A stretch of DNA of 16,631 nt from Vulcanimicrobiota bacterium (lineage in GTDB: Bacteria; Vulcanimicrobiota; Vulcanimicrobiia; Vulcanimicrobiales; Vulcanimicrobiaceae): NCBI GenBank assembly GCA_003135555.1, contig PLCF01000011.1, forward strand, positions 1 through 16,631. Reading direction: 5' to 3'. The notes beneath the pieces were generated by a model, which did no database searches, had not been told where the DNA came from, and was given only the letters and a program-made list of their open reading frames with translations. Of this stretch, positions 12-16,258 are shown one piece after another (the first letter of the stretch is position 1; the number at the start of each line of letters is the position of its first letter). Position numbers and translations under genes: made by a program.

Positions 12-1178
12 TCACTTCACACCGTCTGAATCGCTAGCCGGCACCATCTTTCCATAGCGAGCGTCCATTCGTCGCGCTGCGTCGATGAACTCGGGAGGCG
101 TTACATCCGTGTAGACGTCTCCAGTGGTGGTCAGGGACGAATGCCCCATGGCGCGGGACGTCACAAGAAGCGTCACGCCGGCTGCTTGCATTAGATTACT
201 ATATGTGTGGCGCAGCCCATGAAACGACACCGCCGGCAACTTACGAGTGTGAACCAGGTGGTAGAACATCGACGATAGTGCATCCGGGCTCCAGTACCCG
301 CCGGTCTTCCAATCGGGGAAGAGCGCCTCGGGTACGCGGGCGATCCCGAAATGATCTTCCACCTCTCTGCGATGGCGTTGCAATTCGGCTAGCACGAATG
401 AGGGCAGCACCACGGGCCGTCTTGAGTGATTCGTCTTGGGCACCTTGAGCCGAAGCGACTTGTCGCGCGCCTCGTCGAGCGAACGGCTCACTGAAAGCAC
501 GCCGGACTGCAGGTCTAAGTCGCTCCACATCAGACCCAAGACCTCGCCGCGCCGTAAGCCTCCGAACGCGGCCACCATGGCGGGACAGTAGACGATCGTC
601 CCATGGAGCCCCGCGAACAGGCGTTGAATCGAGCTCGCCGAGAGGCCTTCGATCTTTTGCCCGCCTTTCGGTACCGATTCAACGAGGTCGCACGGATTGC
701 GTGCGAGCCATTGCGACCGAACGCCGAATCTGAGGACGACTCGCAGCGTCGAGTAGAGATGATGGACGGTCCGCTGTGAAAGCCGGCCTCGCTTTCGGTC
801 TCGCCGCGGCATCGTTGTCCACCTTGCCAGGGCTTCGTCGACGAGCTTCGGAGTGAGCCGCGACAGCCGCACCGGACCAAGCACCGGACGCAAGTGGTGG
901 TTAGCGATCGCCTCATAGCGCTCCAGCGTGGCTCGTTCGACGCGCTCGCGACGAGTCGAAAGCCACCGGTCCAAGAGATCTGAAACCGTCGCTGTACCAG
1001 GGTTGGCATACTCCCCGCGCAGCAAGTCGGCTTTGAAGCGATCGAGAGCGGCCTCAGCCTCTCGCTTCGTCCCTTTGATGGTGAGGCGCTTTTGGGTCCG
1101 GCGGCCGCTGAGCCCGGCCGGCAGCGTGATCCGGACAGTCCAGGAGTCCTTTCCACCCCGGACGAGCTTTGCTGACAA
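12..1178 (-). CDS. Tyrosine integrase, phage/ICE type (about 388 aa)
   Basis: Catalytic motifs GLRRGE (R), VPKT (K), FHGLRH (HxxR), MGHSS (H), DVY (Y); N-terminal arm-binding region KGTKREAE. Start reassigned from 1358 to TTG at 1178, which has a GGAGGG Shine-Dalgarno (rc of 1185-1190) and removes overlap with the XRE gene. Confidence 0.95.
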   Translation of the reverse strand: MSAKLVRGGKDSWTVRITLPAGLSGRRTQKRLTIKGTKREAEAALDRFKADLLRGEYANPGTATVSDLLDRWLSTRRERVERATLERYEAIANHHLRPVLGPVRLSRLTPKLVDEALARWTTMPRRDRKRGRLSQRTVHHLYSTLRVVLRFGVRSQWLARNPCDLVESVPKGGQKIEGLSASSIQRLFAGLHGTIVYCPAMVAAFGGLRRGEVLGLMWSDLDLQSGVLSVSRSLDEARDKSLRLKVPKTNHSRRPVVLPSFVLAELQRHRREVEDHFGIARVPEALFPDWKTGGYWSPDALSSMFYHLVHTRKLPAVSFHGLRHTYSNLMQAAGVTLLVTSRAMGHSSLTTTGDVYTDVTPPEFIDAARRMDARYGKMVPASDSDGVK

Positions 1179-1259
1179 TCGAGACCCTCCTATCGGTATA
1201 GACGGTAGTATACTTATTGGCACAAGGTAGCACGGCCTCCCACGGGACAACCCAACCTC

Positions 1260-1637
1260 GTGCCCAAACCCGTGGGTCAGCTCTTGCAGGCTGCGCGCCG
1301 GCGCGCGAAACTCACGCAGTCTCAGCTGGCCAAAAGCGCGGGCCTTGCCGCCAATCATCTCGCTCGGCTGGAGCGCGGCGACAAGGCGTACCCCCGATTC
1401 GACACAGTCGCCAAGATTGCGGCCCAGTTGGGGGTCTCGTTGGATTGGCTTGCCACGGAGTGCGGCCTGGTCAGCGGCCCTCGCCGGCCGCCTGCAGCGG
1501 CCCTACGGCGTGTCCTGACGGCCCTCACTGCCGGCGCCGAGCGAAATAAGCAGACCCAGGTCGAGCTCGCGGAGGCGGCGCAGGAGCTGCGCGCGGCGCT
1601 GGGGCTCGAGCCCGCCCGCCGACGGACCCGCCAGTAG
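1260..1637 (+). CDS. XRE/Cro-CI family HTH transcriptional regulator
   Basis: LQAARRRAKLTQSQLAKSAGLAANHLARLERG...PRFDTVAKIAAQLGVSLDWL is a typical HTH_3 pattern; divergent from the integrase. Confidence 0.92.
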   Translation: MPKPVGQLLQAARRRAKLTQSQLAKSAGLAANHLARLERGDKAYPRFDTVAKIAAQLGVSLDWLATECGLVSGPRRPPAAALRRVLTALTAGAERNKQTQVELAEAAQELRAALGLEPARRRTRQ

Positions 1638-1785
1638 TCAGAAACCGCGTGAGTGCTGCGGCGAGGACGTAGTCCCGACCGCCGATCCGCAGGCCCAGAG
1701 AGGTCATTACGTGGTCGACCTGGCGGCGGCCGAACCCGGTCCGGGCCGCGAGCTCCTTGCGGGACAGAAGCTGTTCTGGTTGCAT
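1525..1785 (-). CDS. Putative excisionase/AlpA-like HTH protein
   Basis: LLSRKELAARTGFGRRQV...LRIGGRDYV...LTRFL resembles Xis-type winged HTH. The low-complexity tail overlaps the XRE 3' end convergently by 113 bp. Confidence 0.55.
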   Translation of the reverse strand: MQPEQLLSRKELAARTGFGRRQVDHVMTSLGLRIGGRDYVLAAALTRFLTTGGSVGGRARAPAPRAAPAPPPRARPGSAYFARRRQ

Positions 1786-1872
1786 CGCGTATCCGATAGT
1801 CCTAGAGACAGCGGACGAGGTTCATGGTGTCCGCCTGGTGTTAGTACGGCCTAAGGTACGGGTGGCTATGGG

Positions 1873-2775
1873 ATGGCGCGAGAGCAAAAGCCAAAGAGTT
1901 TTGCGGGACGAGCTCGACCCGGGCTAAATCAGCCGTTCCACCCGGAACGATGGGCCCGCTGGCTGGAGCGCTGTCGATCGACGCTCGAGCTCTCGAAGCC
2001 TCAGTTCGTTCGAGCGATCCAAGAAGCAGCGGCGCCCCTTGTACCGCTGCCATCCCGTGGCCGAAACTGGGCGGTCACCGAGGTCTATCCCAAGACCGCT
2101 CGTGGAAGCACGCGTCGCGGGTGGCAAGCATACTGGATCGGCGAGGCGATCCGCGAAATTCAAAAAGAACGACTGTACTATTGGTTGTGGACGAGCGGGC
2201 TCGAGAGTCTGTCGTTCGGCGGCTACTTCGGCGATTTGATTGCAGTCATCGGGCTCACCGTCGGCGAGGAGGCCCTAACAGAGGACGTCCTGGAGGACGC
2301 ATTGACCGTCGCGAATCCCGCATCGGCGTGCATCATCGAGGTCCCCGGCATCGAAGGGCGAGCGACGACGAATGGGGCGTACGAGGAAATGCTCGACGAA
2401 TGGGACTTCTGCTTCCGCCTGCGCGACACCACGCCGTTTTCCGCGTCCCTTTCACGCTGGATGCGCAGCAGCCGCCAACTCATGCTTCCATGGGCGTTCG
2501 ATGCTGCGCGAGCCTGCGTAAGCAACGGAGACGAAGTTCACGCGCTGGAACTCCTCCGCTCCGCGGTCGTCATTAGATCGATCGAGCGCTTTGGCAACGC
2601 GCCCCCGGAATCGACGTGGCTACGTGGTCCCGGCCTCGCACTTCAGAGCAATCGCGCGTGGGGCATCGATGACTTCCACTCCGTCCACGTGCTGGGGCAG
2701 GCCCCGTATCGACCATCTCCCCGCCAGCACCTCCGCATCTTCGCCGAGTTCAAGCTCCCGGAACGAGAGGATTGA
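1873..2775 (+). CDS. Hypothetical protein (300 aa), possible N-terminal HTH
   Basis: Long ORF with protein-like composition; WLERCRSTLELSKPQFVRAI resembles the first helices of an XRE-like HTH (weak). Confidence 0.7.
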   Translation: MAREQKPKSFAGRARPGLNQPFHPERWARWLERCRSTLELSKPQFVRAIQEAAAPLVPLPSRGRNWAVTEVYPKTARGSTRRGWQAYWIGEAIREIQKERLYYWLWTSGLESLSFGGYFGDLIAVIGLTVGEEALTEDVLEDALTVANPASACIIEVPGIEGRATTNGAYEEMLDEWDFCFRLRDTTPFSASLSRWMRSSRQLMLPWAFDAARACVSNGDEVHALELLRSAVVIRSIERFGNAPPESTWLRGPGLALQSNRAWGIDDFHSVHVLGQAPYRPSPRQHLRIFAEFKLPERED

Positions 2776-2816
2776 GCGAATTGCCAAACACCGCTGGAAT
2801 CGCGAAAGGGCGGAGA

Positions 2817-2848
2817 TTGCGTTTAACAGACTTAGCTTGGCTTGATAC
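2817..2848 (+). repeat. 32-bp inverted repeat, left copy
   Basis: TTGCGTTTAACAGACTTAGCTTGGCTTGATAC matches the reverse complement of 4934-4965 at 31/32 positions. Confidence 0.97.
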
Positions 2849-2851
2849 CAT
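2823..2851 (+). promoter_or_regulatory. Sigma70-like promoter, probably leaderless transcript for the 2860 ORF
   Basis: TTAACA (2823-2828), 17-bp spacer ending in TGn, TACCAT (2846-2851); ATG 8 nt downstream with no Shine-Dalgarno. Confidence 0.6.
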
Positions 2852-2859
2852 TGTGAACT

Positions 2860-3870
2860 ATGGATGAAGCCTTTAGCGAGCAGTGCCACGCCGAGTTGTC
2901 GGCGTTGCGCGCGACCGACCTCATGGCCGCCGGGATCGCAACCGATCGGCACCTGTTCTACTGCTTGGACGATAACTGTGGAGCGCCGCTCCGGCTTGAC
3001 TCAACGGCGTCCTCCAAGAAGGCGCCGTACTTCATCAGCTGCGCAACGCCCGCGTGCCTGAAACGGCGCGGCCGTACACACGATCCCTCGAACACGCCAG
3101 TTCAATATCACCGTCCGGACTGCGAATACGTGTCCGGCGACACCGGAGGAAGTCAGCAGCACGCCTACTCGGTCTACCTGAGTGGTGACCTGACGTTGGA
3201 TCCCGGAGGTGAAAGCGCCCCTTCAAAGGCCGCAGCGCGTGGCTCAGGCAGTCCCGCGCCGCTCCGAACGCCGCGCGTCCCGATAAACGAACGGCTCAAG
3301 CTGCGATCGCTCGTCGACTACATGGTCGGCTGGAACTCGCGCACTATTGCAAGGGCGTCAATCGACCTGCAAGGGAAGCCCCGGCTCTTGCGGACACTTT
3401 TCGTGCCGGCGCATTGGCTTCCGGAATTTGACCTGCGGAATGGGCGCGTGCGCTGGCCAGAATGGGTTGGCAAGGTCCGCTACTTCGATGCTACAGCGTT
3501 CGCAGTGATCGCGTACGGCGAAGCCGAGCTCGTCGACGTGCGCGCTGACCTTCCGGCAATTCGCTTCATGCAGCCTGCTCTCCAGCGCCGAGGCGTTGCA
3601 GCTTCGCTCGACGAGAAATTGTACGAGCGTTCGGCGTTTCAGCGTCGTTTCGCGCGCGATCTGGCCGCGACGGGATGGGTCCGGGGCAAGACGGTCCGCG
3701 CGTACGCCTACGTGATGGGAACGGTCCGGATGGATGCAACCTACGTGCGAGTTGACCTGCTCACCACGTTTGAAAACGTGCGAATCTTTCCGATAGGCCA
3801 CGGTGCCGTCCCCGGGCTAGTTGCTGCGCACGAGCCCCTTGAGCTAACCCACGAGTTGAAGACGCTTTAG
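2860..3870 (+). CDS. Hypothetical protein (336 aa) with N-terminal Cys/His putative zinc-binding domain
   Basis: FYCLDDNC...PYF..C...C...H.PDC; layout loosely like the CoiA N-terminal zinc module. Confidence 0.75.
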   Translation: MDEAFSEQCHAELSALRATDLMAAGIATDRHLFYCLDDNCGAPLRLDSTASSKKAPYFISCATPACLKRRGRTHDPSNTPVQYHRPDCEYVSGDTGGSQQHAYSVYLSGDLTLDPGGESAPSKAAARGSGSPAPLRTPRVPINERLKLRSLVDYMVGWNSRTIARASIDLQGKPRLLRTLFVPAHWLPEFDLRNGRVRWPEWVGKVRYFDATAFAVIAYGEAELVDVRADLPAIRFMQPALQRRGVAASLDEKLYERSAFQRRFARDLAATGWVRGKTVRAYAYVMGTVRMDATYVRVDLLTTFENVRIFPIGHGAVPGLVAAHEPLELTHELKTL

Positions 3871-3881
3871 GAAAGCCCACC

Positions 3882-4397
3882 CTAGAGGATGTCGCCGCGC
3901 CGCCAAGACCAGACCAACGCCATCTCACCTAGCCGGATCGAACCCGCGAGGTCCGGATCGAGTAGTACGGCCACGAATCCGTGAATTGTCTCTATCACGA
4001 TGTAGCCGAGCAAATGGGATTGCCGGTAGACCGTTCCGCGGTCTAACCGTCCCTCCCCAAACATCGGATCGCCACTTTCCCTGCTCTTAACGAAGCCGCG
4101 CAGCGTCCCCGGCGGAAGCTCGTCGTCCCTCATTAGCCGGACGTCAAACTCCGCCTCGATGCACTCGCGCAAGTATTGACGACGCGCCGGCTCGTCGTTG
4201 ATCGCGGGAAGCGGCACCGGCGGACGGTCCATGAGTGCGTATAGCCTGTCTGAAGTCTTGGGCCGCGGGTGCAACAGGCTATGCACCTTGAACCGAGCTG
4301 AGAGCACCCATTCCCGGAGCAGCTGCCGAAGCGTCACACCGTCGGGGCAATCCACGTAGACGCCGGATTTCACCACCCGTATACCGAGCAGGTCCAC
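3882..4397 (-). CDS. Hypothetical protein (about 171 aa)
   Basis: In-frame GTG at 4397 lies 1 nt after the TAA of the upstream HTH gene, suggesting translational coupling. Confidence 0.65.
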   Translation of the reverse strand: MDLLGIRVVKSGVYVDCPDGVTLRQLLREWVLSARFKVHSLLHPRPKTSDRLYALMDRPPVPLPAINDEPARRQYLRECIEAEFDVRLMRDDELPPGTLRGFVKSRESGDPMFGEGRLDRGTVYRQSHLLGYIVIETIHGFVAVLLDPDLAGSIRLGEMALVWSWRRGDIL

Positions 4398-4398
4398 G

Positions 4399-4776
4399 TT
4401 AGCCGTCGTAGCCCAGGTCCGCAAACAGCGGCCGCGTCAGCACGAGCTTACGGCGCCCGATCGTCTTGACTCTGATCTGACCGTCATCCACCGCAGCGTA
4501 TGCCGTCGCCCGCGAGATACCCAACACAAAGGCGGCATCCTCTACGGTCATCGTCGGAAGCTGGCGGAGATCTTCGATGTATTGTCCGCGCTCTCGCGCG
4601 ACGCGTGCGTCCTTTCCGATCGCTCGTCTCCTTACGGCTCGAGGTTTGGTCGCCGCCGCCGGCAGCGCGCTCGATCGAGCCGCGCCCTTTGACGGTGTTC
4701 CGGTAGTGGCACTCTTCGCGGTGACCTCTGACCCGGCTGCAACCGAACGCGTACGAATTCGACCGTTAGCGACCAT
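4399..4776 (-). CDS. Excisionase-family (HTH_17-like) DNA-binding protein
   Basis: C-terminal TMTVEDAAFVLGISRATAYAAVDDGQIRVKTIGRRKLV is a classic excisionase/MerR-like HTH; basic Ala-rich N-terminal extension, start uncertain. Confidence 0.85.
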   Translation of the reverse strand: MVANGRIRTRSVAAGSEVTAKSATTGTPSKGAARSSALPAAATKPRAVRRRAIGKDARVARERGQYIEDLRQLPTMTVEDAAFVLGISRATAYAAVDDGQIRVKTIGRRKLVLTRPLFADLGYDG

Positions 4777-4787
4777 TTTCGACCGTT
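4758..4787. repeat. Three tandem 10-bp repeats over the HTH_17 start codon
   Basis: TTCGACCGTT / AGCGACCATT / TTCGACCGTT. Confidence 0.75.
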
Positions 4788-4831
4788 TGTGTCATCGCGT
4801 GATGTCCCGTCATCTTGAGTTTTGGCAAACA

Positions 4832-4861
4832 TTGACGCCCCGACACCGCGCCGGGTACAGT
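4832..4861 (+). promoter_or_regulatory. Candidate sigma70 promoter inside the IR-bounded segment, pointing toward the recombinase pair
   Basis: TTGACG, 18 bp, TACAGT. Confidence 0.45.
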
Positions 4862-4870
4862 CGGGTGCGA

Positions 4871-4896
4871 GTCGGCGGGCCGAGCGGTCTGCCGAC
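4871..4896 (+). other. 11-bp stem-loop
   Basis: GTCGGCGGGCC-GAGC-GGTCTGCCGAC with two G-U wobbles on the + strand; no U-tract. Confidence 0.6.
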
Positions 4897-4930
4897 GCCT
4901 CTCCCGTAGCACTGCGTCCAAAGTAGAACG

Positions 4931-4959
4931 AATGTATCAAGACAAGCTAAGTCTGTTAA
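4931..4959 (-). promoter_or_regulatory. Sigma70-like promoter within right IR, toward the HTH_17 operon
   Basis: Minus strand: TTAACA, 17-bp spacer ending in TGn, TACATT. Confidence 0.55.
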
Positions 4960-4965
4960 ACGCAA
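4934..4965 (-). repeat. 32-bp inverted repeat, right copy
   Basis: GTATCAAGACAAGCTAAGTCTGTTAAACGCAA is the reverse complement of 2817-2848 with one mismatch. Confidence 0.97.
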
Positions 4966-5168
4966 CAAGCCCGAGCGCCGAAAATAGCGCCATCGTGCGG
5001 CGTTCGGGGCAAACGGCCACGCTCGCCCACCGGCGCCGGCGCGCGCGCAACAGCGCGCTCGTGCGCGAGTTGTTGGGCGAGATCGACCTCCCTGCCGACA
5101 CCGGCGAGGCCGGCTACGCGCAGACCGCGGCGCATGGAATCGACGTCGTGGCGCTTTTTGCGGACCCC

Positions 5169-5197
5169 TTGCCAAGTGGGATAGTGTGTGATATACC
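5169..5197 (+). promoter_or_regulatory. Candidate promoter for recombinase pair
   Basis: TTGCCA, 17-bp spacer ending in TGn, TATACC, 40 nt upstream of ATG 5238. Confidence 0.45.
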
Positions 5198-5237
5198 CAG
5201 CGGCACGGGTTGCTCCCAGACACCCAAGGACGATCGA

Positions 5238-6218
5238 ATGAACGAGCTACCCGAAGCGCTCGTCGACGCGATCGACGCGGGATCATCCCAGTTGGGCCGC
5301 CTGAGTCCTCAGGTCGCCTACTATCTGCGGAACTCCCGCGCCCCGTCGACCCGAGCGCTTTATCGCTGGGCCTGGAACCGCGTCCTGCGCGCCTGTCGCG
5401 CCATGAGCCGCTGCCCCCTGCCCATGACCGAAGCCTGCGCCGCGATGGTGATCGTCGACGCCGTCAACGACGGCCTCGTGTTCGGCTCCATCCGCATCAT
5501 CGCCACGGTGATCTCGGTAGCGCACGAAATTGCCAAACAGCCCGATCCCACCAAGACCGAGGCGTTCCGCAGCGTCATCCGGGGCATCGGGCGCGCGCTC
5601 ACGCATCAGCAAGATCAGAAAGTGGCGCTCACGCCGGACGAGCTGCGGCTCATTCGGGACTCCTGCGCCGCTGATCCCAATCGCGCGCGCGGGACGCGCG
5701 ACTGGGCGCTGGTGTCGTTTGGCTTCGCCGGCGCCTTCCGACGCAGCGAGATCATCGCGCGCAACACCGCAGACTTGGAGTTCCTGGCTCAGGAACTGCG
5801 GGTCTATATCGATCGCAGCAAGACCGACCAGTTCGGTCGCGGCGCCTACATCACGATTCGCCCCGCGAACGATCCCAAGGTCTGTCCGATCGACGCGATG
5901 CGCTCATGGCTAGCGATCCTGCCGGGGCCGGGGCCACTCTTCCGGCGCGTCACTGCCCACAACACCGTCAACCCTGCGCGTCTGTCGGCCTACTCCGTGA
6001 CGAGCATCGTCAAGGGCTTCGGCGTCGTTCTCGAGCTACCCGAGGACCGGCTGGGCGCACACTCCTTGCGCGCCGGAATGATCACGGCCCTCATGGAGGC
6101 CGGCGTGTCCAACGTGCTCACGATGGATCACAGCCGGCATAAGTGCGACGATACGCTGCGGCGCTACTATCGGCCGCGACGCTCGGCCGTGAACTATACC
6201 GCGATGGCGGGACTGTAA
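5238..6218 (+). CDS. Cre-like tyrosine recombinase, catalytically intact (about 326 aa)
   Basis: RDWALVSFGFAGAFRRSE (R), RSKTDQFGRG (K), CPIDA, HSLRAG (HxxR), SRHK (H), LRRY (Y). Start reassigned from 4932 to ATG 5238 with AAGGA Shine-Dalgarno at 5226-5230. Confidence 0.93.
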   Translation: MNELPEALVDAIDAGSSQLGRLSPQVAYYLRNSRAPSTRALYRWAWNRVLRACRAMSRCPLPMTEACAAMVIVDAVNDGLVFGSIRIIATVISVAHEIAKQPDPTKTEAFRSVIRGIGRALTHQQDQKVALTPDELRLIRDSCAADPNRARGTRDWALVSFGFAGAFRRSEIIARNTADLEFLAQELRVYIDRSKTDQFGRGAYITIRPANDPKVCPIDAMRSWLAILPGPGPLFRRVTAHNTVNPARLSAYSVTSIVKGFGVVLELPEDRLGAHSLRAGMITALMEAGVSNVLTMDHSRHKCDDTLRRYYRPRRSAVNYTAMAGL

Positions 6219-7141
6219 TGGCACGCGTCGTCTGCCGGCCCGGCACGCTACCCGTCGCCCAACTCCCCGACGATGCGCGGGCGTTCGCGGAACTGCCGTA
6301 TGCGCCGTTCACCGAAGAGGCTCGGCAGTTCCACTTGCGGGCGTACGAACGATGGTGCGCGGGCCGCGCACGAGTGCCCTGGCCGACGAGCCTCCAGACG
6401 CTGCTCGAGTTCGCGGCCGACCGCGCTCCGGGCCGTTCGTACTACACGATTCGCGAGCACGTGCGCGTCGTCTCGATGGTCGAGCGCGCGCGCAGCGGGA
6501 TCGATCTGTATGCGCATTGCGCCATGCGCAAGGCACTCGAGGGCATCAAGCGGGACTGTCCGCCACGCCCAGTCGCGCCGCTGCGCCCGTCCCAAATCAG
6601 CCTGCTCTTCGCCTACCGCCCCAAGACAGCGGCGCACCAGGTGATCCGTACGATGGCCCTTCTTTCCTACGCGGCCGGCTTTACGCTATCGGAGCACCAC
6701 AAATTCCGCTGCGAGATGGTGACCTTAACTGACGAGGGGGCGACAATCGAAGGCTTGGGCGACGATCGGCCCCTGTTTCACATTGGCCCCGCGCAGGACG
6801 CTGAACGCTGTCCGGTTCGCGCGCTGCGCGCTACGATCGGTCGACGTTCGGACGGGTACGTGTACACCACCGTGCGATCCCGTCGCCTCGATAAGCACTT
6901 TAGCTATGACGGGCTGGGGCAGGAGCTCGCGCGATACGGAAGGGCAGCGGGAGTAACGCCGCTGAGCAACGACCGAATCCGGATCGCGGGCCTGGTCGAG
7001 CAAGCTCGAAACATCGACATCGTACGCCTGGCGCACTTCCACGGATATCGCTCGGTCAACACGCTCGCGGGATTGCTCGGTCGCTACATCGAGGTGAACG
7101 CCGCACTGCGGTGGAGCACTGCTCGTCGCGAGAAATGGTAA
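6218..7141 (+). CDS. Cre-like tyrosine recombinase paralog with degenerate active site (about 307 aa)
   Basis: TAATG stop/start overlap with the upstream gene; collinear similarity to it (APST/APFT, CPLP/VPWP, RGIGR/EGIKR, IRPANDPKVCPIDAMR/IGPAQDAERCPVRALR) but catalytic motifs altered. Confidence 0.85.
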   Translation: MARVVCRPGTLPVAQLPDDARAFAELPYAPFTEEARQFHLRAYERWCAGRARVPWPTSLQTLLEFAADRAPGRSYYTIREHVRVVSMVERARSGIDLYAHCAMRKALEGIKRDCPPRPVAPLRPSQISLLFAYRPKTAAHQVIRTMALLSYAAGFTLSEHHKFRCEMVTLTDEGATIEGLGDDRPLFHIGPAQDAERCPVRALRATIGRRSDGYVYTTVRSRRLDKHFSYDGLGQELARYGRAAGVTPLSNDRIRIAGLVEQARNIDIVRLAHFHGYRSVNTLAGLLGRYIEVNAALRWSTARREKW

Positions 7142-7309
7142 GTGGTTCCAAGCGGACCCACAGCGCAACGCAGCGTCGCGACGATGCGCTCGCGGCGGGC
7201 GGTCATGTCGAGTCCGGCAACGCATTGCCAACCAAAGCCAGCCCGTCCCCGCACATTGCCCGTCAGGTCGGGCGGCGGGATCTGAGCTTGTCGCCGGGCA
7301 CCAGGGCGC

Positions 7310-7490
7310 CGCCGAGAACGTGCGACGGTTGAGCGCCGCGAACCGCCGAGACCGCCAGACCCTGACACGTCCGCCGAGCAGAATGGAGCGCCTTAAGGTC
7401 ATCTGTTGTGCGGACGTGGCCTAGACGTCCCTGCGGCCGGGAAGCCCGGCCGTCGAGCGCGTGCGTAAGCGCTAGGCTTGCCCGCGCGCG
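7310..7490 (+). repeat. Diverged direct repeat, copy 1
   Basis: Three collinear blocks against 16095-16258: 32/39, 28/32 and 74/81 identities. Confidence 0.95.
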
Positions 7491-7616
7491 CCCCGCTTAC
7501 CAGAGGTCCTTCGCCGCAAGGAATCGCGGGCTTGGTCGGCCTACCGGTGCACGAGGACCCCCCAAGGTCTTGGCGGAGGGTCTTTCACCGTTTCGACGGG
7601 TAAGGACGGACGAGCA

Positions 7617-8665: not shown

Positions 8666-8955
8666 CAACAGACGAGGGGCAGCGGCGGCGCTTTACCCCG
8701 ATCGCAATCTTCAAGCCCTGCGCCATTGTCATGTCTGGTGCGGTCGCGGCGATCATGATCGGAGCAGTCTACCTGGGCTTGTATTCGGACCCCTCGCATC
8801 CGACCGAAGACGAACGGAATCAGGCCCTCGATCGGTCGGCGCTGCTCTGCATCGTGGAACGCATAAACGACGCGGCCCGCCCTACCAAGGGCGGGCCGCA
8901 AAAGGAACCCAAGAATTGTGTCGTTTTTAGGTCGGTCCCCGCGCAGCAGCGATAA
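8662..8955 (+). CDS. Small single-TM hypothetical protein (97 aa)
   Basis: ATGA overlap with upstream gene; AIVMSGAVAAIMIGAVYLGLY hydrophobic segment. Confidence 0.6.
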   Translation: MTTDEGQRRRFTPIAIFKPCAIVMSGAVAAIMIGAVYLGLYSDPSHPTEDERNQALDRSALLCIVERINDAARPTKGGPQKEPKNCVVFRSVPAQQR

Positions 8956-9382
8956 GGCCGCCAAAGTATCGTTCGAGCGACTTATGGGTGATCTCCGACG
9001 TGCTTCTAATCCACGCAGGGATCCCCTGACGTGCTTCTAGCCAGGGCTCTTCGTTATGAGTTAACTGACTGAGCGCGGCACCATTGTAGTGCCGGTATAC
9101 CTCAAAGATATGGTCGACGAACGACTGTTGATCGGCGGATAAGTGCCAAGGATTTCCGCCCTCGATCGCGTTGATGCGATAGCGGTGGTGATACTTCTGC
9201 CAGAGCTCAGGAACAACAGGCCCGTTGACCCACGCTTCAATGCGTTCAGGAAACAACGCTCCTCTGCCATTTCCGAGGCTCCAACCCTGGCAGTAATAGA
9301 GAATCTTGTGGAGCTGCATCTGCTCGATCGTCCCGCCGGACTCCCGAAGCAAATGCGCTGCTGTATCAAATACGGATGCCAT
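8927..9382 (-). CDS. Panacea-domain antitoxin (DUF4065, SocA/GepA-like)
   Basis: QLHKILYYCQGW, LFPERIEAWVNGPVVPELW, LSQLTHNEEPW signature motifs; GAGG Shine-Dalgarno upstream. Confidence 0.93.
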   Translation of the reverse strand: MASVFDTAAHLLRESGGTIEQMQLHKILYYCQGWSLGNGRGALFPERIEAWVNGPVVPELWQKYHHRYRINAIEGGNPWHLSADQQSFVDHIFEVYRHYNGAALSQLTHNEEPWLEARQGIPAWIRSTSEITHKSLERYFGGLIAAARGPT

Positions 9383-9499
9383 CGTCTAGCCCTCGGCCGT
9401 TGTGTTACCGAGGTAACCTCTCACTACAATCATTGGTCGGAAGCAATGAGCGCTATGCACGACGGCTCGCGCCATGCCGAAAAGCCGCTCCGTCTAGAA

Positions 9500-10020
9500 C
9501 GCGCGCACTTGTCGTACTTTCCGCGATCACTGTCCGGTCTCACACCCATGTCCTTATCAACGAATTCGGCGCTAAGAACGTCTCTCGGCTCGGTCCGCCC
9601 ACTGAGCCCTGGCTGCCGCATGAACCCAACCCTTCTGGCGCATGCTCCGGCGTAGATGCGTCACCCGATCACGTGTCCGCGTCCGTCCGGGTCCGCCTTA
9701 TGTCTGTTTTCCCGCGAGCCGCCGTCTCACACCAGCCAGCGTCCCGCGGTAGTTTTCATGTCTCTCTGATCGGCAGATATCGGTCCCGGGTTTCGTATCC
9801 GCCGGATGGTGACCTGCCCCACGCGCGGCCTTTCGTCCCGCGGGCGAACAGCCTTTTGGACGGGTCGGCGAGCGCTGTTTTTCCGCGGCGCCAAGCCTCT
9901 CAATCGGCCTACCGGCAACCTTCCCGCACCGGCCACGGCGGCTCGGATTTTCCCAGGTTCCGCGGCGCCGGGCCGCTCCCGCCTACCTGGCAAGCCGTTG
10001 TCACGTCGACGCCATGGGCC
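9500..10020 (-). ncRNA. Candidate structured non-coding RNA (unassigned)
   Basis: No credible ORF; adjacent stems joined by A-rich linkers on the minus strand, several G-U wobbles favouring minus, internal repeats. Limits approximate. Confidence 0.3.
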
Positions 10021-10180
10021 CGGGGATTGGCGCGCCAGCACGCGGCCGCCTCCGTTCTCTTTCGCCGCCGCGATCGTCGGCGCTCCGAAATCAGCGGGCT
10101 CGAAAACGCGCACTGATTCGTCGAGTCGGAGGGAACTCTGCGCAGTCATTGACGGACCTCAAGCGACACCGCGATGCGCG

Positions 10181-11278
10181 TCATTGGTGTCGTTCTTGCT
10201 TGTCGATGTCGGCGACCATCCTATCGAAATCGCTTTGCGGCCAGCCGTCCGTGTAGAGCGCTTGCAGATCGGCCCGAACATCCGCAACTGCGTCGAACGC
10301 CATCTTCTTCAGGACGAGCGACGCGACTGAGGCCGACTCCTCTGCGACGACATCGACCGGGCGAAGAGCAGCGCCCACGCTAAAGTGCGCGATTGCGTTC
10401 CGATAGTCGGCGCGGAAGACGTCATCGATCAACTCGAGGTAGGTCTTCCCAACTGCGTTCATGGCGAGCGTCGCGTAGGGCTCCTCGTTCGGCAGTCGAC
10501 GATGCGCCTCGATCGGCAGTTTTCGCTCCCTCCGGACCTTGCGCAGCTTCCCGTCCATCAGCTCGTAGTAGTAGTGCGCTACGTTGTAATAGCAGAGAGC
10601 GCGGTAGAACGGGCTCTCGGTCCGGAGAGCTTCGACGATCAGACGGCCAAACGCGTCGACAACGCCCATATCTGCCCCGAACCCGAACGGCTCGTGCAGG
10701 CGAACCACCGGGTACGCGACGCGGAACGATACGAGTTGCGGGACACCCGAGACCTCCTCGACGACGAGGGCGTCCCAGCGCAAAGCGATGCCGGATGCTA
10801 CGGCGTACCGGATGATCAACCGCTCGAGCATCACGTGCACCATCTCGGCCGCATCGCGCACGGTCGCCGCGCCGAACGGCGACACCTCGAACCCGCCGAC
10901 TCTTCCGTGTTCGTTAAGGTGAGCCAGCCAATCGATCCGCGAGCCAGCGACCTCTATCCCAAATCGCGCATCCGCGGGCGCCACAACGTAGTTCGAATCA
11001 CCCTGGAGGACGTTGCCGATCGTCGCGTCGACAAGATCCATCGGGCGCGAAGCACCGTCAGCGGGCACGAGCCGGATCGCGGCACGGAACCGACCGACAG
11101 TCGCAAATAATTCGGGGTCACCGAAGAGCCGCGTCACCGCGTAGCCCCATTCGTATTTCTTAAATTCTTCGACGCCCGTTTCGCCGAAAGCAACCTCTCG
11201 CAGCAGCGGCGAGAACGGACGCTGGTCGGCCGCGTCCCCGTCGACTTCGGAACGTGGTAGCGTTGGTGACCTCGTCAC
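10181..11278 (-). CDS. HEPN-domain protein, MauJ-like (about 365 aa)
   Basis: EALRTESPFYRALCYYNV and RNAIAH (Rx4H). GTG at 11278 overlaps the upstream TGA (GTGA). Confidence 0.75.
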   Translation of the reverse strand: MTRSPTLPRSEVDGDAADQRPFSPLLREVAFGETGVEEFKKYEWGYAVTRLFGDPELFATVGRFRAAIRLVPADGASRPMDLVDATIGNVLQGDSNYVVAPADARFGIEVAGSRIDWLAHLNEHGRVGGFEVSPFGAATVRDAAEMVHVMLERLIIRYAVASGIALRWDALVVEEVSGVPQLVSFRVAYPVVRLHEPFGFGADMGVVDAFGRLIVEALRTESPFYRALCYYNVAHYYYELMDGKLRKVRRERKLPIEAHRRLPNEEPYATLAMNAVGKTYLELIDDVFRADYRNAIAHFSVGAALRPVDVVAEESASVASLVLKKMAFDAVADVRADLQALYTDGWPQSDFDRMVADIDKQERHQ

Positions 11279-12105
11279 GTCGGTGCGCCGCCCTTCCAAG
11301 CGGAACACGCCTTGCCACGCAGCGCCGAGCCGAGATCATTCGCGACGGTCAGAAGGGTTAGGAAAATGGTTAGGTTTCCCAGCGCCAACTGCTTGTCGAC
11401 ACGCTTAGCCCTACGGTGCGCGACATCGTCACGGTTCACTTTTACGATCGCGACCAGGCTATCCAGATAGGTCTGGACCTGATACCAAAGATCAGGGGGG
11501 AACTCGTCGTTGTGATAGTCAAGCGCGTTACGAAACGCGGTAAACCGTCGTTCCGTGCGTAGCCGCGTCTGCTCGAACGACTTTCGGAAGCTTTCAAGCC
11601 GATCTGGCGGCAAGTGTGCCATATAGGCGTCGTAAGTCCACTCCATCACCGCCTCGCCAGAAATCCCGAGCATAACGGTGCTACTGAGGTAACGCCGGTC
11701 TTGGAACGACTGATTCGCCTCGACGAGGTACTCTACTATGGTGTCGTCGGCGTCCGGCATGCGCCGCTTCGCATCCGCAATGTAGCCCTCCGCGTCGTGC
11801 GGAGTGACAGGGTTCTCCTTCGGATCGAGCACCTTTCGCCCGTAGGACGTGAGCGAGAAATAAGGGAAATGGCGCCTTGCTTCGTTCCCGAACCCGGGGC
11901 CCAGAGAGTTTCCGGGAACGATGATGCCGTCGGCGACCAGGGAGAACAGGACCGAATAGAAATCCGCGCTCATGTCCGTCATGGTGCCGCCCCAACCGGT
12001 CGAGATGCCGTTGCGCAGGACGTCGATGTTCAATGCGTCCGTGGTCATGCTCCGGAGCTCGCGGAGGTTGTCGAGAACGACTGCCTTCATTTCGTCAAAC
12101 GTCAC
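11275..12105 (-). CDS. Winged-HTH plus HEPN-like (DUF4145-like) protein (276 aa)
   Basis: LVADGIIVPG...FSLTSYGRKVL wHTH wing; YLVEANQSF...YLSSTVMLG...E helix pair; RDDVAH (Rx4H). Confidence 0.7.
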   Translation of the reverse strand: MTFDEMKAVVLDNLRELRSMTTDALNIDVLRNGISTGWGGTMTDMSADFYSVLFSLVADGIIVPGNSLGPGFGNEARRHFPYFSLTSYGRKVLDPKENPVTPHDAEGYIADAKRRMPDADDTIVEYLVEANQSFQDRRYLSSTVMLGISGEAVMEWTYDAYMAHLPPDRLESFRKSFEQTRLRTERRFTAFRNALDYHNDEFPPDLWYQVQTYLDSLVAIVKVNRDDVAHRRAKRVDKQLALGNLTIFLTLLTVANDLGSALRGKACSAWKGGAPT

Positions 12106-16094: not shown

Positions 16095-16258
16095 CGCCGA
16101 GGAGGCGCGACAATTGAGCGCCGCGGCCCGCCGGACCTGACACGCCCGCTGAGTAGAATGGACCGCCCAGAGTCACAGCGGACGTGGGCTAGGCGTCCCT
16201 GCCGCCGGGAAGCCCGGTCGTTGAGCGCGTGCGTAATCGCTAGGCTTGGCCGCGCGCG
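16095..16258 (+). repeat. Diverged direct repeat, copy 2
   Basis: Collinear with 7310-7490; 81-bp core 16178-16258 is 74/81 identical to 7410-7490. Confidence 0.95.

Follow-up and report, generated by a model that had tools for sequence, protein, structure and literature searches.

The stretch analysed here (the window) covers 16,631 bases at the start of contig C69 (PLCF01000011.1; 65,682 bases) in a Vulcanimicrobiota genome assembled from a peat metagenome (98 contigs, 84% complete, 3.57-Mb assembly). It carries two overlapping genes on the plus strand: gene 1, a Cre-like tyrosine recombinase gene whose core spans 5238–6218 (326 aa) within a longer open reading frame (ORF) at 4932–6218 (428 aa), and gene 2, which encodes a recombinase-fold paralog of 307 aa at 6218–7141. 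At their junction, TAATG at 6216–6220, the TAA stop codon of gene 1 and the ATG start codon of gene 2 share one base. An interpretation made earlier from the DNA letters only (the sequence-only reading) had described two full-length paralogs joined by TAATG, one active and the other catalytically dead, and had proposed a heteromeric recombinase with a dedicated non-catalytic subunit. The coordinates and both frames were correct, and the homology extended over 298 columns. A 32-bp AT-rich element, a candidate recombination site, lies at 4934–4965 (plus strand) and overlaps codons 1–11 of the long gene 1 ORF, and a second, inverted copy lies at 2817–2848 (minus strand).

The overlapping genes 1 and 2

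The gene 1 product matched the Pfam family PF00589 (Phage_integrase) at 29.6 bits, narrowly above the cut-off of 27.1 bits, and the top Foldseek match of its model was Cre (1.8e-12, ~320 columns), indicating a two-domain Cre/Xer fold; phmmer found no solved structure for it, and there was no match in NCBIfam. Its catalytic set consists of R168, E171, K195, H275/R278, H301 and Y310, so the R, K, HxxR, H and Y reported earlier are all present. In an alignment of 22 close relatives (42–92% identity), R, E, K, H, R and Y were conserved in 22/22 and the third His (His III) in 21/22. Judged by its fold and residues, gene 1 is predicted to encode a catalytic Cre/Xer-type tyrosine recombinase.

Since BLASTP detected no recognisable likeness between the two proteins, aligning only one 17-residue patch (E 0.013), their paralogy rests on profiles and fold. 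The profile of the gene 2 family matched that of the gene 1 family with E 5e-8 and archaeal XerA with E 4e-4, and hhalign aligned the gene 2 family with 97 canonical recombinases at E 6e-26 and 99.7% probability over 298 columns, out of the 307 residues of gene 2. The AlphaFold2 (AF2) model of gene 2 had a predicted local distance difference test (pLDDT) score of 80, with 80–95 for residues 40–110. It matched Cre over its full length in Foldseek (E 4e-9, ~320 columns), as the gene 1 model did, and XerA and Cre in VIA at Z 16–17 with 230–279 residues aligned; its neighbours in the Atlas were integrases with template modelling (TM) scores of 0.75–0.77. Gene 2 gave no match to PF00589 at E ≤ 1, staying below the Pfam gathering score, and had no match of its own in Pfam, NCBIfam or the sequences of the PDB (phmmer, for solved structures). 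PF00589 was weakly touched by 9 of 18 members of its family (E ≤ 10), the best at 7.2e-5.

The catalytic positions of gene 2 were assigned by alignment, and residues were counted over 20 relatives, the two most divergent ones included. At the first catalytic Arg (Arg I), GAFRRSE aligned with AGFTLSE, whether gene 2 was compared with the gene 1 family, XerA, Cre or the 97 canonical recombinases, which places T156 at this position (T 13, S 2, G 2, N 1 and R 2 of 20). The Lys hairpin SKTDQ is deleted in the profile alignments or, at most, represented by G181, and none of the 20 relatives has a Lys there. HSLR aligned with DRIR; the second His (His II) is replaced by D252 (D 14, E 4, N 1 and T 1), whereas Arg II survives as R255 in 20/20. 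His III of gene 1 aligned with G276 (G in 20/20) or Y277. The position of the catalytic Tyr is taken by L286, and the Tyr noted four residues later is present as Y290, which follows a 4-residue insertion in the profile alignment and may be the positional equivalent of the nucleophile, yet is conserved in only 14/20 relatives (H 5, N 1).

The substitutions listed in the sequence-only reading (AGFTLSE, absence of the SKTDQ hairpin, DRIR, loss of His III and Leu at the Tyr position) were thus confirmed by alignment, and gene 2 lacks the full catalytic set R, K, H, R, H/W, Y, Arg II alone being kept in all relatives. Around the former active site, R184, R253, R255, H275 and G276 (each 20/20), H273 (19/20) and Y277 (18/20, L or F in the two most divergent relatives) form a conserved cluster. 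Among the Tyr residues of the last 80 positions only Y230 is invariant, and it aligned outside the active-site motifs. These models and alignments support, in silico, that gene 2 encodes a full-length two-domain protein of recombinase fold without a working active site. Beyond the family, the next-best match to the gene 2 profile was P0148 (325 aa, E 3e-21), which by eye also appears to lack RxSE and HxxR and may belong to a separate degenerate recombinase lineage.

The frame of gene 2 had been described as unbroken despite deep divergence, and it was intact in every full-length relative: 18 aligned family members of 293–332 aa share full-length frames, 50–82% identity and 57 invariant columns. 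The ratio of non-synonymous to synonymous substitution rates (dN/dS; Nei-Gojobori, four loci) was 0.17–0.32 for gene 2 in five pairs, the sixth being saturated, and 0.10–0.24 for gene 1; these values are upper bounds because dS is near saturation. The low ratios run contrary to neutral decay and support, at the level of in silico comparison, purifying selection on gene 2. It was less identical than gene 1 in 28/28 pairwise comparisons. The same genome offers an example of what decay would look like, namely a truncated second copy of gene 2 on contig C56 (97815–98363, minus strand; also found as loci L003 and L032), which covers residues 119–304 at 55–58% identity, contains three stops (two TGA and one TAA) in ~185 codons, lies 3 kb from the contig end and has no detectable gene 1 remnant adjoining it.

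A scan of metagenomes gave nine loci, of which L010–L012 were dropped as 24-residue patches. In all six real loci left, which represent three distinct sequences, gene 1 lies directly upstream of gene 2, and the two genes overlap by stop and start codon in the form of TAATG, ATGA or TGATG. Such syntenic pairs had been proposed as a check on the pairing. For 8 of the 17 protein relatives of gene 2, the source contig had the same size as that of a close gene 1 relative. The database protein P0141 (749 aa), in which a gene 1 homolog runs into a gene 2 homolog, was rejected as a true fusion; it is a frameshifted read-through and was for this reason not counted as Rosetta-stone evidence. The last ~35 residues of its gene 1 part before gene 2 are read out of frame, because of a frameshift in sequencing or because the Tyr region of gene 1 was inactivated in nature.

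The pair is rare. Only 17 relatives of gene 2 were found among 5.8 billion clustered proteins, and among 1.84 billion proteins seven representatives matched at E ≤ 1e-30, ordinary recombinases starting at ~1e-21. None of 347 other genomes of the family matched gene 2 at E ≤ 1e-30, and a draw of 400 genomes from the phylum contained no ortholog, the best match being 6.8e-22; the matches in this draw were frames of 268–374 aa with partial query cover, read as ordinary recombinases. Scanning genome contigs with the gene 2 profile gave one spurious 52-residue match only, scanning viral contigs with the profile and with the site pattern gave nothing, and phage records gave no match; matches in plasmid records were set aside as ordinary integrases of 24–27% identity. 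On this distribution, genes 1 and 2 appear to be a rare accessory module and not housekeeping genes of the lineage.

A complex of the gene 1 core with gene 2 was predicted from alignments of the two proteins alone. Three runs gave interaction prediction scores from aligned errors (ipSAE) of 0.70, 0.67 and 0.65, whereas the best of three controls scored 0.00; the partner had a pLDDT of 80, with at least 89% of the contacts common to the runs; in a benchmark, the pass mark was reached by 116/157 solved complexes and 2/215 mismatched pairs. On the gene 1 side, the interface is formed by the C-terminal tail, residues 420–428 of the long form with the invariant N421, T423 and G427. On the gene 2 side, it is formed by a pocket of residues 148–153, 188–200 and 258–284, which includes the invariant RLAHFHGY. 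Invariant columns of gene 2 were enriched in the interface (18/46 versus 39/261, odds ratio 3.7, p = 3e-4). Gene 2 is thus predicted to bind gene 1 through a C-terminal tail contact of the Cre type, such as is seen between adjacent subunits of Cre and Xer synapses.

The 32-bp element and the surrounding mobile DNA

Translation of gene 1 probably starts at 4932 and not at 5238, so that the 32-bp element would fall inside the coding frame. In most relatives from the databases the N-terminus is annotated as longer, and the extension from 4932 is free of stops over 102 codons and was in frame in all loci examined (102 codons in the window, 193 in L004 and 124 in L007); a variant of it in the metagenome runs X3 and X4 differs by 24 nt, which keeps the frame. 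The extension evolves fast (pN/pS, the ratio of non-synonymous to synonymous differences, of 0.62–0.85) and is predicted to be disordered, residues 1–136 of the gene 1 model having mostly a pLDDT below 50. The two-domain core opens at an invariant Met at 5238, preceded by AAGGA, and this Met is a possible second start. Within the extension (4932–5237) we observed three short conserved motifs, MYQDKLSLLN, VRP..T..RR.N and PLPxGxxCxIPxGTG; the linkers between them differ in length among relatives by multiples of three. Because the first of these motifs is the 32-bp DNA element itself, constraints on protein and DNA overlap here.

The two copies of the element match at 31/32 bases with sharp edges and are separated by 2085 nt. 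They are the only copies in the 3.57-Mb assembly when up to 8 mismatches are allowed, in which no third full or half copy was found. The element is also present directly upstream of the gene 1 homolog in L004 (31/32 bases) and L007 (27/32 bases), although the recombinase proteins of these loci are only ~71–72% identical to those of the window. Its arms have little dyad symmetry, only AGAC/GTCT being palindromic within 32–34 bp, so the element is asymmetric, as dif is. The inverted 32-nt arms flank a segment next to a recombinase gene, an arrangement as in an invertible DNA switch.

Contigs of four runs labelled peat metagenome (X1–X4) were compared with the window over 1500–7600. A contig of 27–33 kb in X3 and X4 matched 1500–4981 with two differences and then continued as a different allele. 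In this allele the extension is 182 nt long instead of 158, gene 1 differs at 126 of 1089 nt, gene 2 has diverged further and reaches ≥ 90% identity only in patches, and the sequence beyond 7139 is unrelated. In the assembly graph of X1 and X2, a 53-nt node at 4925–4977 had a depth of approximately the sum of two right-hand variants. It follows that the site, gene 1 and gene 2 are a conserved unit and that the element marks the junction of exchangeable parts. A junction at this position would fit a recombination site without proving one, and the assembled contig may itself have been put together from a left and a right part that belong to different elements.

Both copies of the element also resemble sigma-70 promoters, TTAACA-17-TAC(A/C)(T/A)T with an upstream TG. 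The copy at 4934–4965 contains TTAACA-17-TACATT on the minus strand, facing the HTH_17 gene described below, and the copy at 2817–2848 contains an inward-facing TTAACA-17-TACCAT that ends 8 nt before an ATG at 2860; a promoter scan gave three promoter-like sites versus 0.8 expected. The element may accordingly serve transcription, as a promoter or operator, or recombination, as a crossover site, or both. If the left promoter-like site is real, the mRNA of the ORF at 2860–3870 would be leaderless or nearly so (2851–2862). The minus-strand site inside the element (4959–4931) is faced by a promoter-like site on the plus strand at 4832–4861, upstream of the long gene 1 start; transcripts from the two would overlap by ~50–60 nt, so that transcription of gene 1 and of the excisionase-like gene could interfere with each other.

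At the left end of the window, a gene at 12–1358 (minus strand) encodes a phage-type integrase with an N-terminal SAM-like domain (PF00589 2.2e-14; PF14659 7e-9; phrog_1 6.6e-64), which by these matches marks the surrounding DNA as an integrative mobile element. A comparable integrase lies 1.9 kb left of the 32-bp site in L004, so the gene pair is found a few kb from a phage-type integrase in both loci. Divergent from gene 1, a gene at 4399–4776 (minus strand) encodes a DNA-binding protein of the HTH_17/excisionase family (125 aa; Pfam HTH_17 5.8e-7; TIGR01764 excisionase domain 2.7e-6). A homolog of 51% identity occupies the same divergent position in L007, and none was found adjoining the 32-bp site in L004. 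Between the inverted copies of the element there are also two ORFs, 2860–3870 (plus strand, 336 aa), which has unnamed relatives in the Atlas, and 3882–4424 (minus strand, 180 aa), neither of which matched Pfam, NCBIfam, PHROG or PADLOC. Genes 1 and 2 are the only genes common to the window, L004, L007 and L008, with nothing shared downstream. Rfam gave no match in the window and PADLOC nothing relevant.

Downstream of the pair, a direct repeat of ~190 nt occurs just after gene 2 (7300–7491) and again 8.8 kb downstream (16095–16258), with 78–91% identity. Its final 86 nt form three consecutive hairpins (−50.9 kcal/mol), and the repeat occurs nowhere else in the assembly and did not match Rfam; it could mark an att-like boundary of an inserted unit of 8.8 kb, or be a structured RNA or a terminator. 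Between the copies lie a SocA/Panacea-domain antitoxin-like gene at 8927–9382 (minus strand; Pfam 1e-16, phrog_1281 9e-35) and, back to back with it, an unannotated ORF of 246 aa at 9376–10116 (plus strand); the two may form a toxin-antitoxin pair among the cargo genes of the element. A 375-aa ORF at 10181–11308 (minus strand) in this cargo region had a marginal match to the MauJ domain (30.6 bits against a 28-bit cut-off).

The proposed module and competing explanations

We consider the chances about even that genes 1 and 2 encode the two subunits of a site-specific recombination module that travels on integrative mobile elements, gene 2 supplying the non-catalytic subunit. Both proteins would be made together by translational coupling. 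Gene 2 would have kept the two-domain DNA-clamp fold and the surface for subunit contacts and lost the active site, and the conserved C-terminal tail of gene 1 would dock into its catalytic-like domain, as between neighbours in a Cre or Xer synapse. The likely substrate would be the asymmetric 32–34-bp element where gene 1 begins, one arm being held by each protein. Since gene 1 alone can cleave, a complex of two plus two subunits could exchange one strand pair only, and the outcome of such an exchange would depend on resolution of the junction by the host; alternatively, gene 2 would gate when gene 1 fires. That gene 2 binds DNA, that this element is the site and how the reaction ends are inferred here. 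Of the heteromer suggested in the sequence-only reading, the dead active site, the selection and the linkage are hence supported in silico, and the contact between the subunits is predicted by modelling.

To a stricter version of this module we assign a small chance: an obligate heterotetramer of two live and two dead subunits, which by its make-up could swap only one strand pair and would act as a natural half-reaction recombinase, leaving the host with a Holliday junction or a nicked circle, at an asymmetric site that doubles as the promoter of the excisionase-like gene. Since this site would comprise both that promoter and the first 11 codons of the recombinase, each recombination event would rewire expression.

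Several observations weigh against the two-subunit module. A heteromer with one catalytic type of subunit cannot complete the canonical two-step exchange, and a gene 1 homotetramer could do the whole job alone. The invariant columns of gene 1 were not enriched in the predicted interface (8/40 versus 51/286), and the complex may have passed because of its likeness to solved structures, since Cre-type tetramers have been solved. The identity matrices of genes 1 and 2 correlated modestly (r = 0.46 over 28 pairs). As for the site, L004 has a single copy within 8–12 kb, the break in identity in the X3/X4 contig falls as much as 16 nt to the right of the element, so that homologous exchange could explain it, and the promoter-like character of both copies, each facing a gene, suggests that the element may be a promoter or operator instead of a crossover site. 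No strand-change joint, which a flipped 2.1-kb segment would leave, was found in the X1–X4 contigs; because contigs drop rare variants, the missing flipped form is no evidence against inversion.

The promoter-like sequences lead to an alternative that we hold to be unlikely, in which gene 2 is a DNA-binding repressor like YopR, MrpR or SroF, sits on the 32-bp element as its operator and controls the HTH_17 gene and the ORF at 2860–3870, whereas gene 1 recombines alone. The gene 2 model indeed matched YopR (8bpz, Z 12.6), SroF (9rd5, Z 12.7) and MrpR (8a0a, Z 11.9), and YopR is a repressor that binds DNA and has the recombinase fold without most of the catalytic residues, with no recombination detected in its authors' in vitro assay (bioRxiv 10.1101/2022.10.21.513154). 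Both copies of the element are promoter-like, in a scan with more such sites than expected, and the HTH_17 gene is syntenic in L007, all of which would suit such a repressor; on the other hand, no HTH_17 homolog was found by the site in L004, Cre and the Xer proteins outscore the repressors at Z 16–17, and a free-standing repressor would need neither the strict adjacency, nor the overlap of stop and start codons, nor the predicted docking of the tail. The predicted docking, the lost active site and the coupled translation, which would give near-equal amounts of both proteins, would equally suit a dominant-negative brake that caps or poisons gene 1 assemblies through the contact between tail and pocket until a signal removes gene 2. 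Inhibition was among the options named in the sequence-only reading, and nothing in the analysis separates a brake from a partner, but a pure inhibitor would not need the whole conserved N-terminal DNA-clamp domain, modelled with pLDDT 80–95 over residues 40–110, and we give this explanation only a slim chance.

Two further explanations appear far less probable. The conserved cluster at the former active site would make sense if gene 2 were an enzyme with a non-canonical set (R253, R255, H273, H275 and Y277 or Y290), or a donor of a Tyr in trans to the gene 1 pocket, as in Flp. Neither candidate Tyr is constant, however, Y277 being L or F in the two most divergent relatives and Y290 being H in 5/20 and N in 1/20, and the invariant Y230 lies outside the active-site motifs; Arg I and Lys, both missing here, are reportedly essential according to Cre mutagenesis. 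Residual catalysis by gene 2 is therefore very improbable in our judgement. Still closer to nil is the chance that gene 2 is a decaying, functionless duplicate, whose open frame would be a by-product of high G+C. Its faster evolution than that of gene 1 in all 28 comparisons and its lack of a Pfam match of its own would be expected of such a duplicate, but its dN/dS values, the 18 full-length members with 57 invariant columns and the unlinked copy on C56, which did decay and acquired three stops, already contradict this explanation at the level of sequence comparison.

Most work on how tyrosine recombinases choose the two of four subunits that cleave, and the order in which they do so, has used engineered Cre heterodimers and XerC/XerD. 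If the two-subunit module is true, a natural system with a permanently dead type of subunit would be a compact model of this control, consisting of two genes and ~34 bp of DNA, and it could show how mobile elements use the exchange of a single strand pair, as proposed for strand-biased circularizing integrative (SE) elements and the CTX phage. A two-component recombinase acting on an asymmetric site could also serve genome engineering, if it is directional.

Relation to known recombinase systems

XerC and XerD at dif are two paralogous Cre-type subunits that act on an asymmetric core site with differing outer arms and control catalysis through their C-termini, and some of their reactions need only one partner to cleave, the integration of the CTX phage being independent of XerD. 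Both of them keep full active sites and are chromosomal housekeeping genes, whereas here one subunit is dead and the pair is rare and accessory. Cre is the best structural match of both proteins, and Cre/loxP also resembles the present system in the size of the recombinase (~320 aa) and of the site (~34 bp), as well as in the location of loxP just upstream of the recombinase gene in phage P1. Cre, however, works as a homotetramer, and its site consists of two 13-bp arms that are perfect inverted copies of each other; the arms of the present element have little in common besides AGAC/GTCT, and the locus encodes a second, dead subunit.

Adjacent and co-oriented recombinase genes that make up one mobility module are known from the recombinase in trio (RIT) elements. 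TnpA/TnpB of Tn554 (PMC10214605) and GmtY/GmtZ/GmtX of GMT (bioRxiv 10.1101/2023.03.28.534373) are arranged likewise. The recombinase members of such modules are described with a catalytic motif or an integrase domain, and none as a pair of one active and one dead protein. Literature searches, with supplements outside their scope, yielded no description of an active-plus-dead pair of tyrosine recombinases.

The novelty assumed in the sequence-only reading nevertheless has to be narrowed, because the coupled proteins Tfp and GinC and the repressors YopR and MrpR are already in print. Tfp of the SE elements and GinC of the GInt islands are non-catalytic recombinase-fold proteins whose role is given as unknown in the survey's account of them (PMC10214605). 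Like gene 2, they have the recombinase fold without RHRY and are encoded in an overlapping, presumably coupled recombinase operon on integrative elements. According to the same account, active recombinase genes flank tfp on both sides (intA-tfp-intB), and srap is present as a fourth gene; hits of Tfp shorter than 550 aa were filtered as truncated, and Tfp was found only in Gammaproteobacteria and GinC in Gamma- and Betaproteobacteria (PMC10214605). The present pair has one active recombinase, and the layout of two active flanking recombinases with a fourth gene (srap or ginD) does not occur; judged by the published descriptions, gene 2 is set apart as a 307-aa two-domain partner, with no third or fourth conserved gene, in a metagenome-assembled genome from peat.

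YopR, MrpR and SroF, the latter two named regulator and repressor only in the titles of their solved entries, share with gene 2 the recombinase fold with most catalytic residues replaced (Z 11.9–12.7 to the gene 2 model). These master repressors of SPbeta-like phages (SPbeta/phi3T) act on their own, in a phage whose recombinase is of the serine type, and no active paralog is coupled to them; YopR keeps Lys and Tyr, in the account of its structure (bioRxiv 10.1101/2022.10.21.513154), whereas gene 2 keeps Arg II. Beside Tfp/GinC and YopR, gene 2 would add a third, independent lineage of pseudo-enzymes with the recombinase fold, suggesting that members of this superfamily have repeatedly lost catalysis while keeping DNA clamping and subunit contacts. 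The present pair differs from Tfp/GinC and YopR in that a live and a dead subunit of the same size are combined, both Cre-like in both domains, with no third or fourth conserved gene and in a different lineage.

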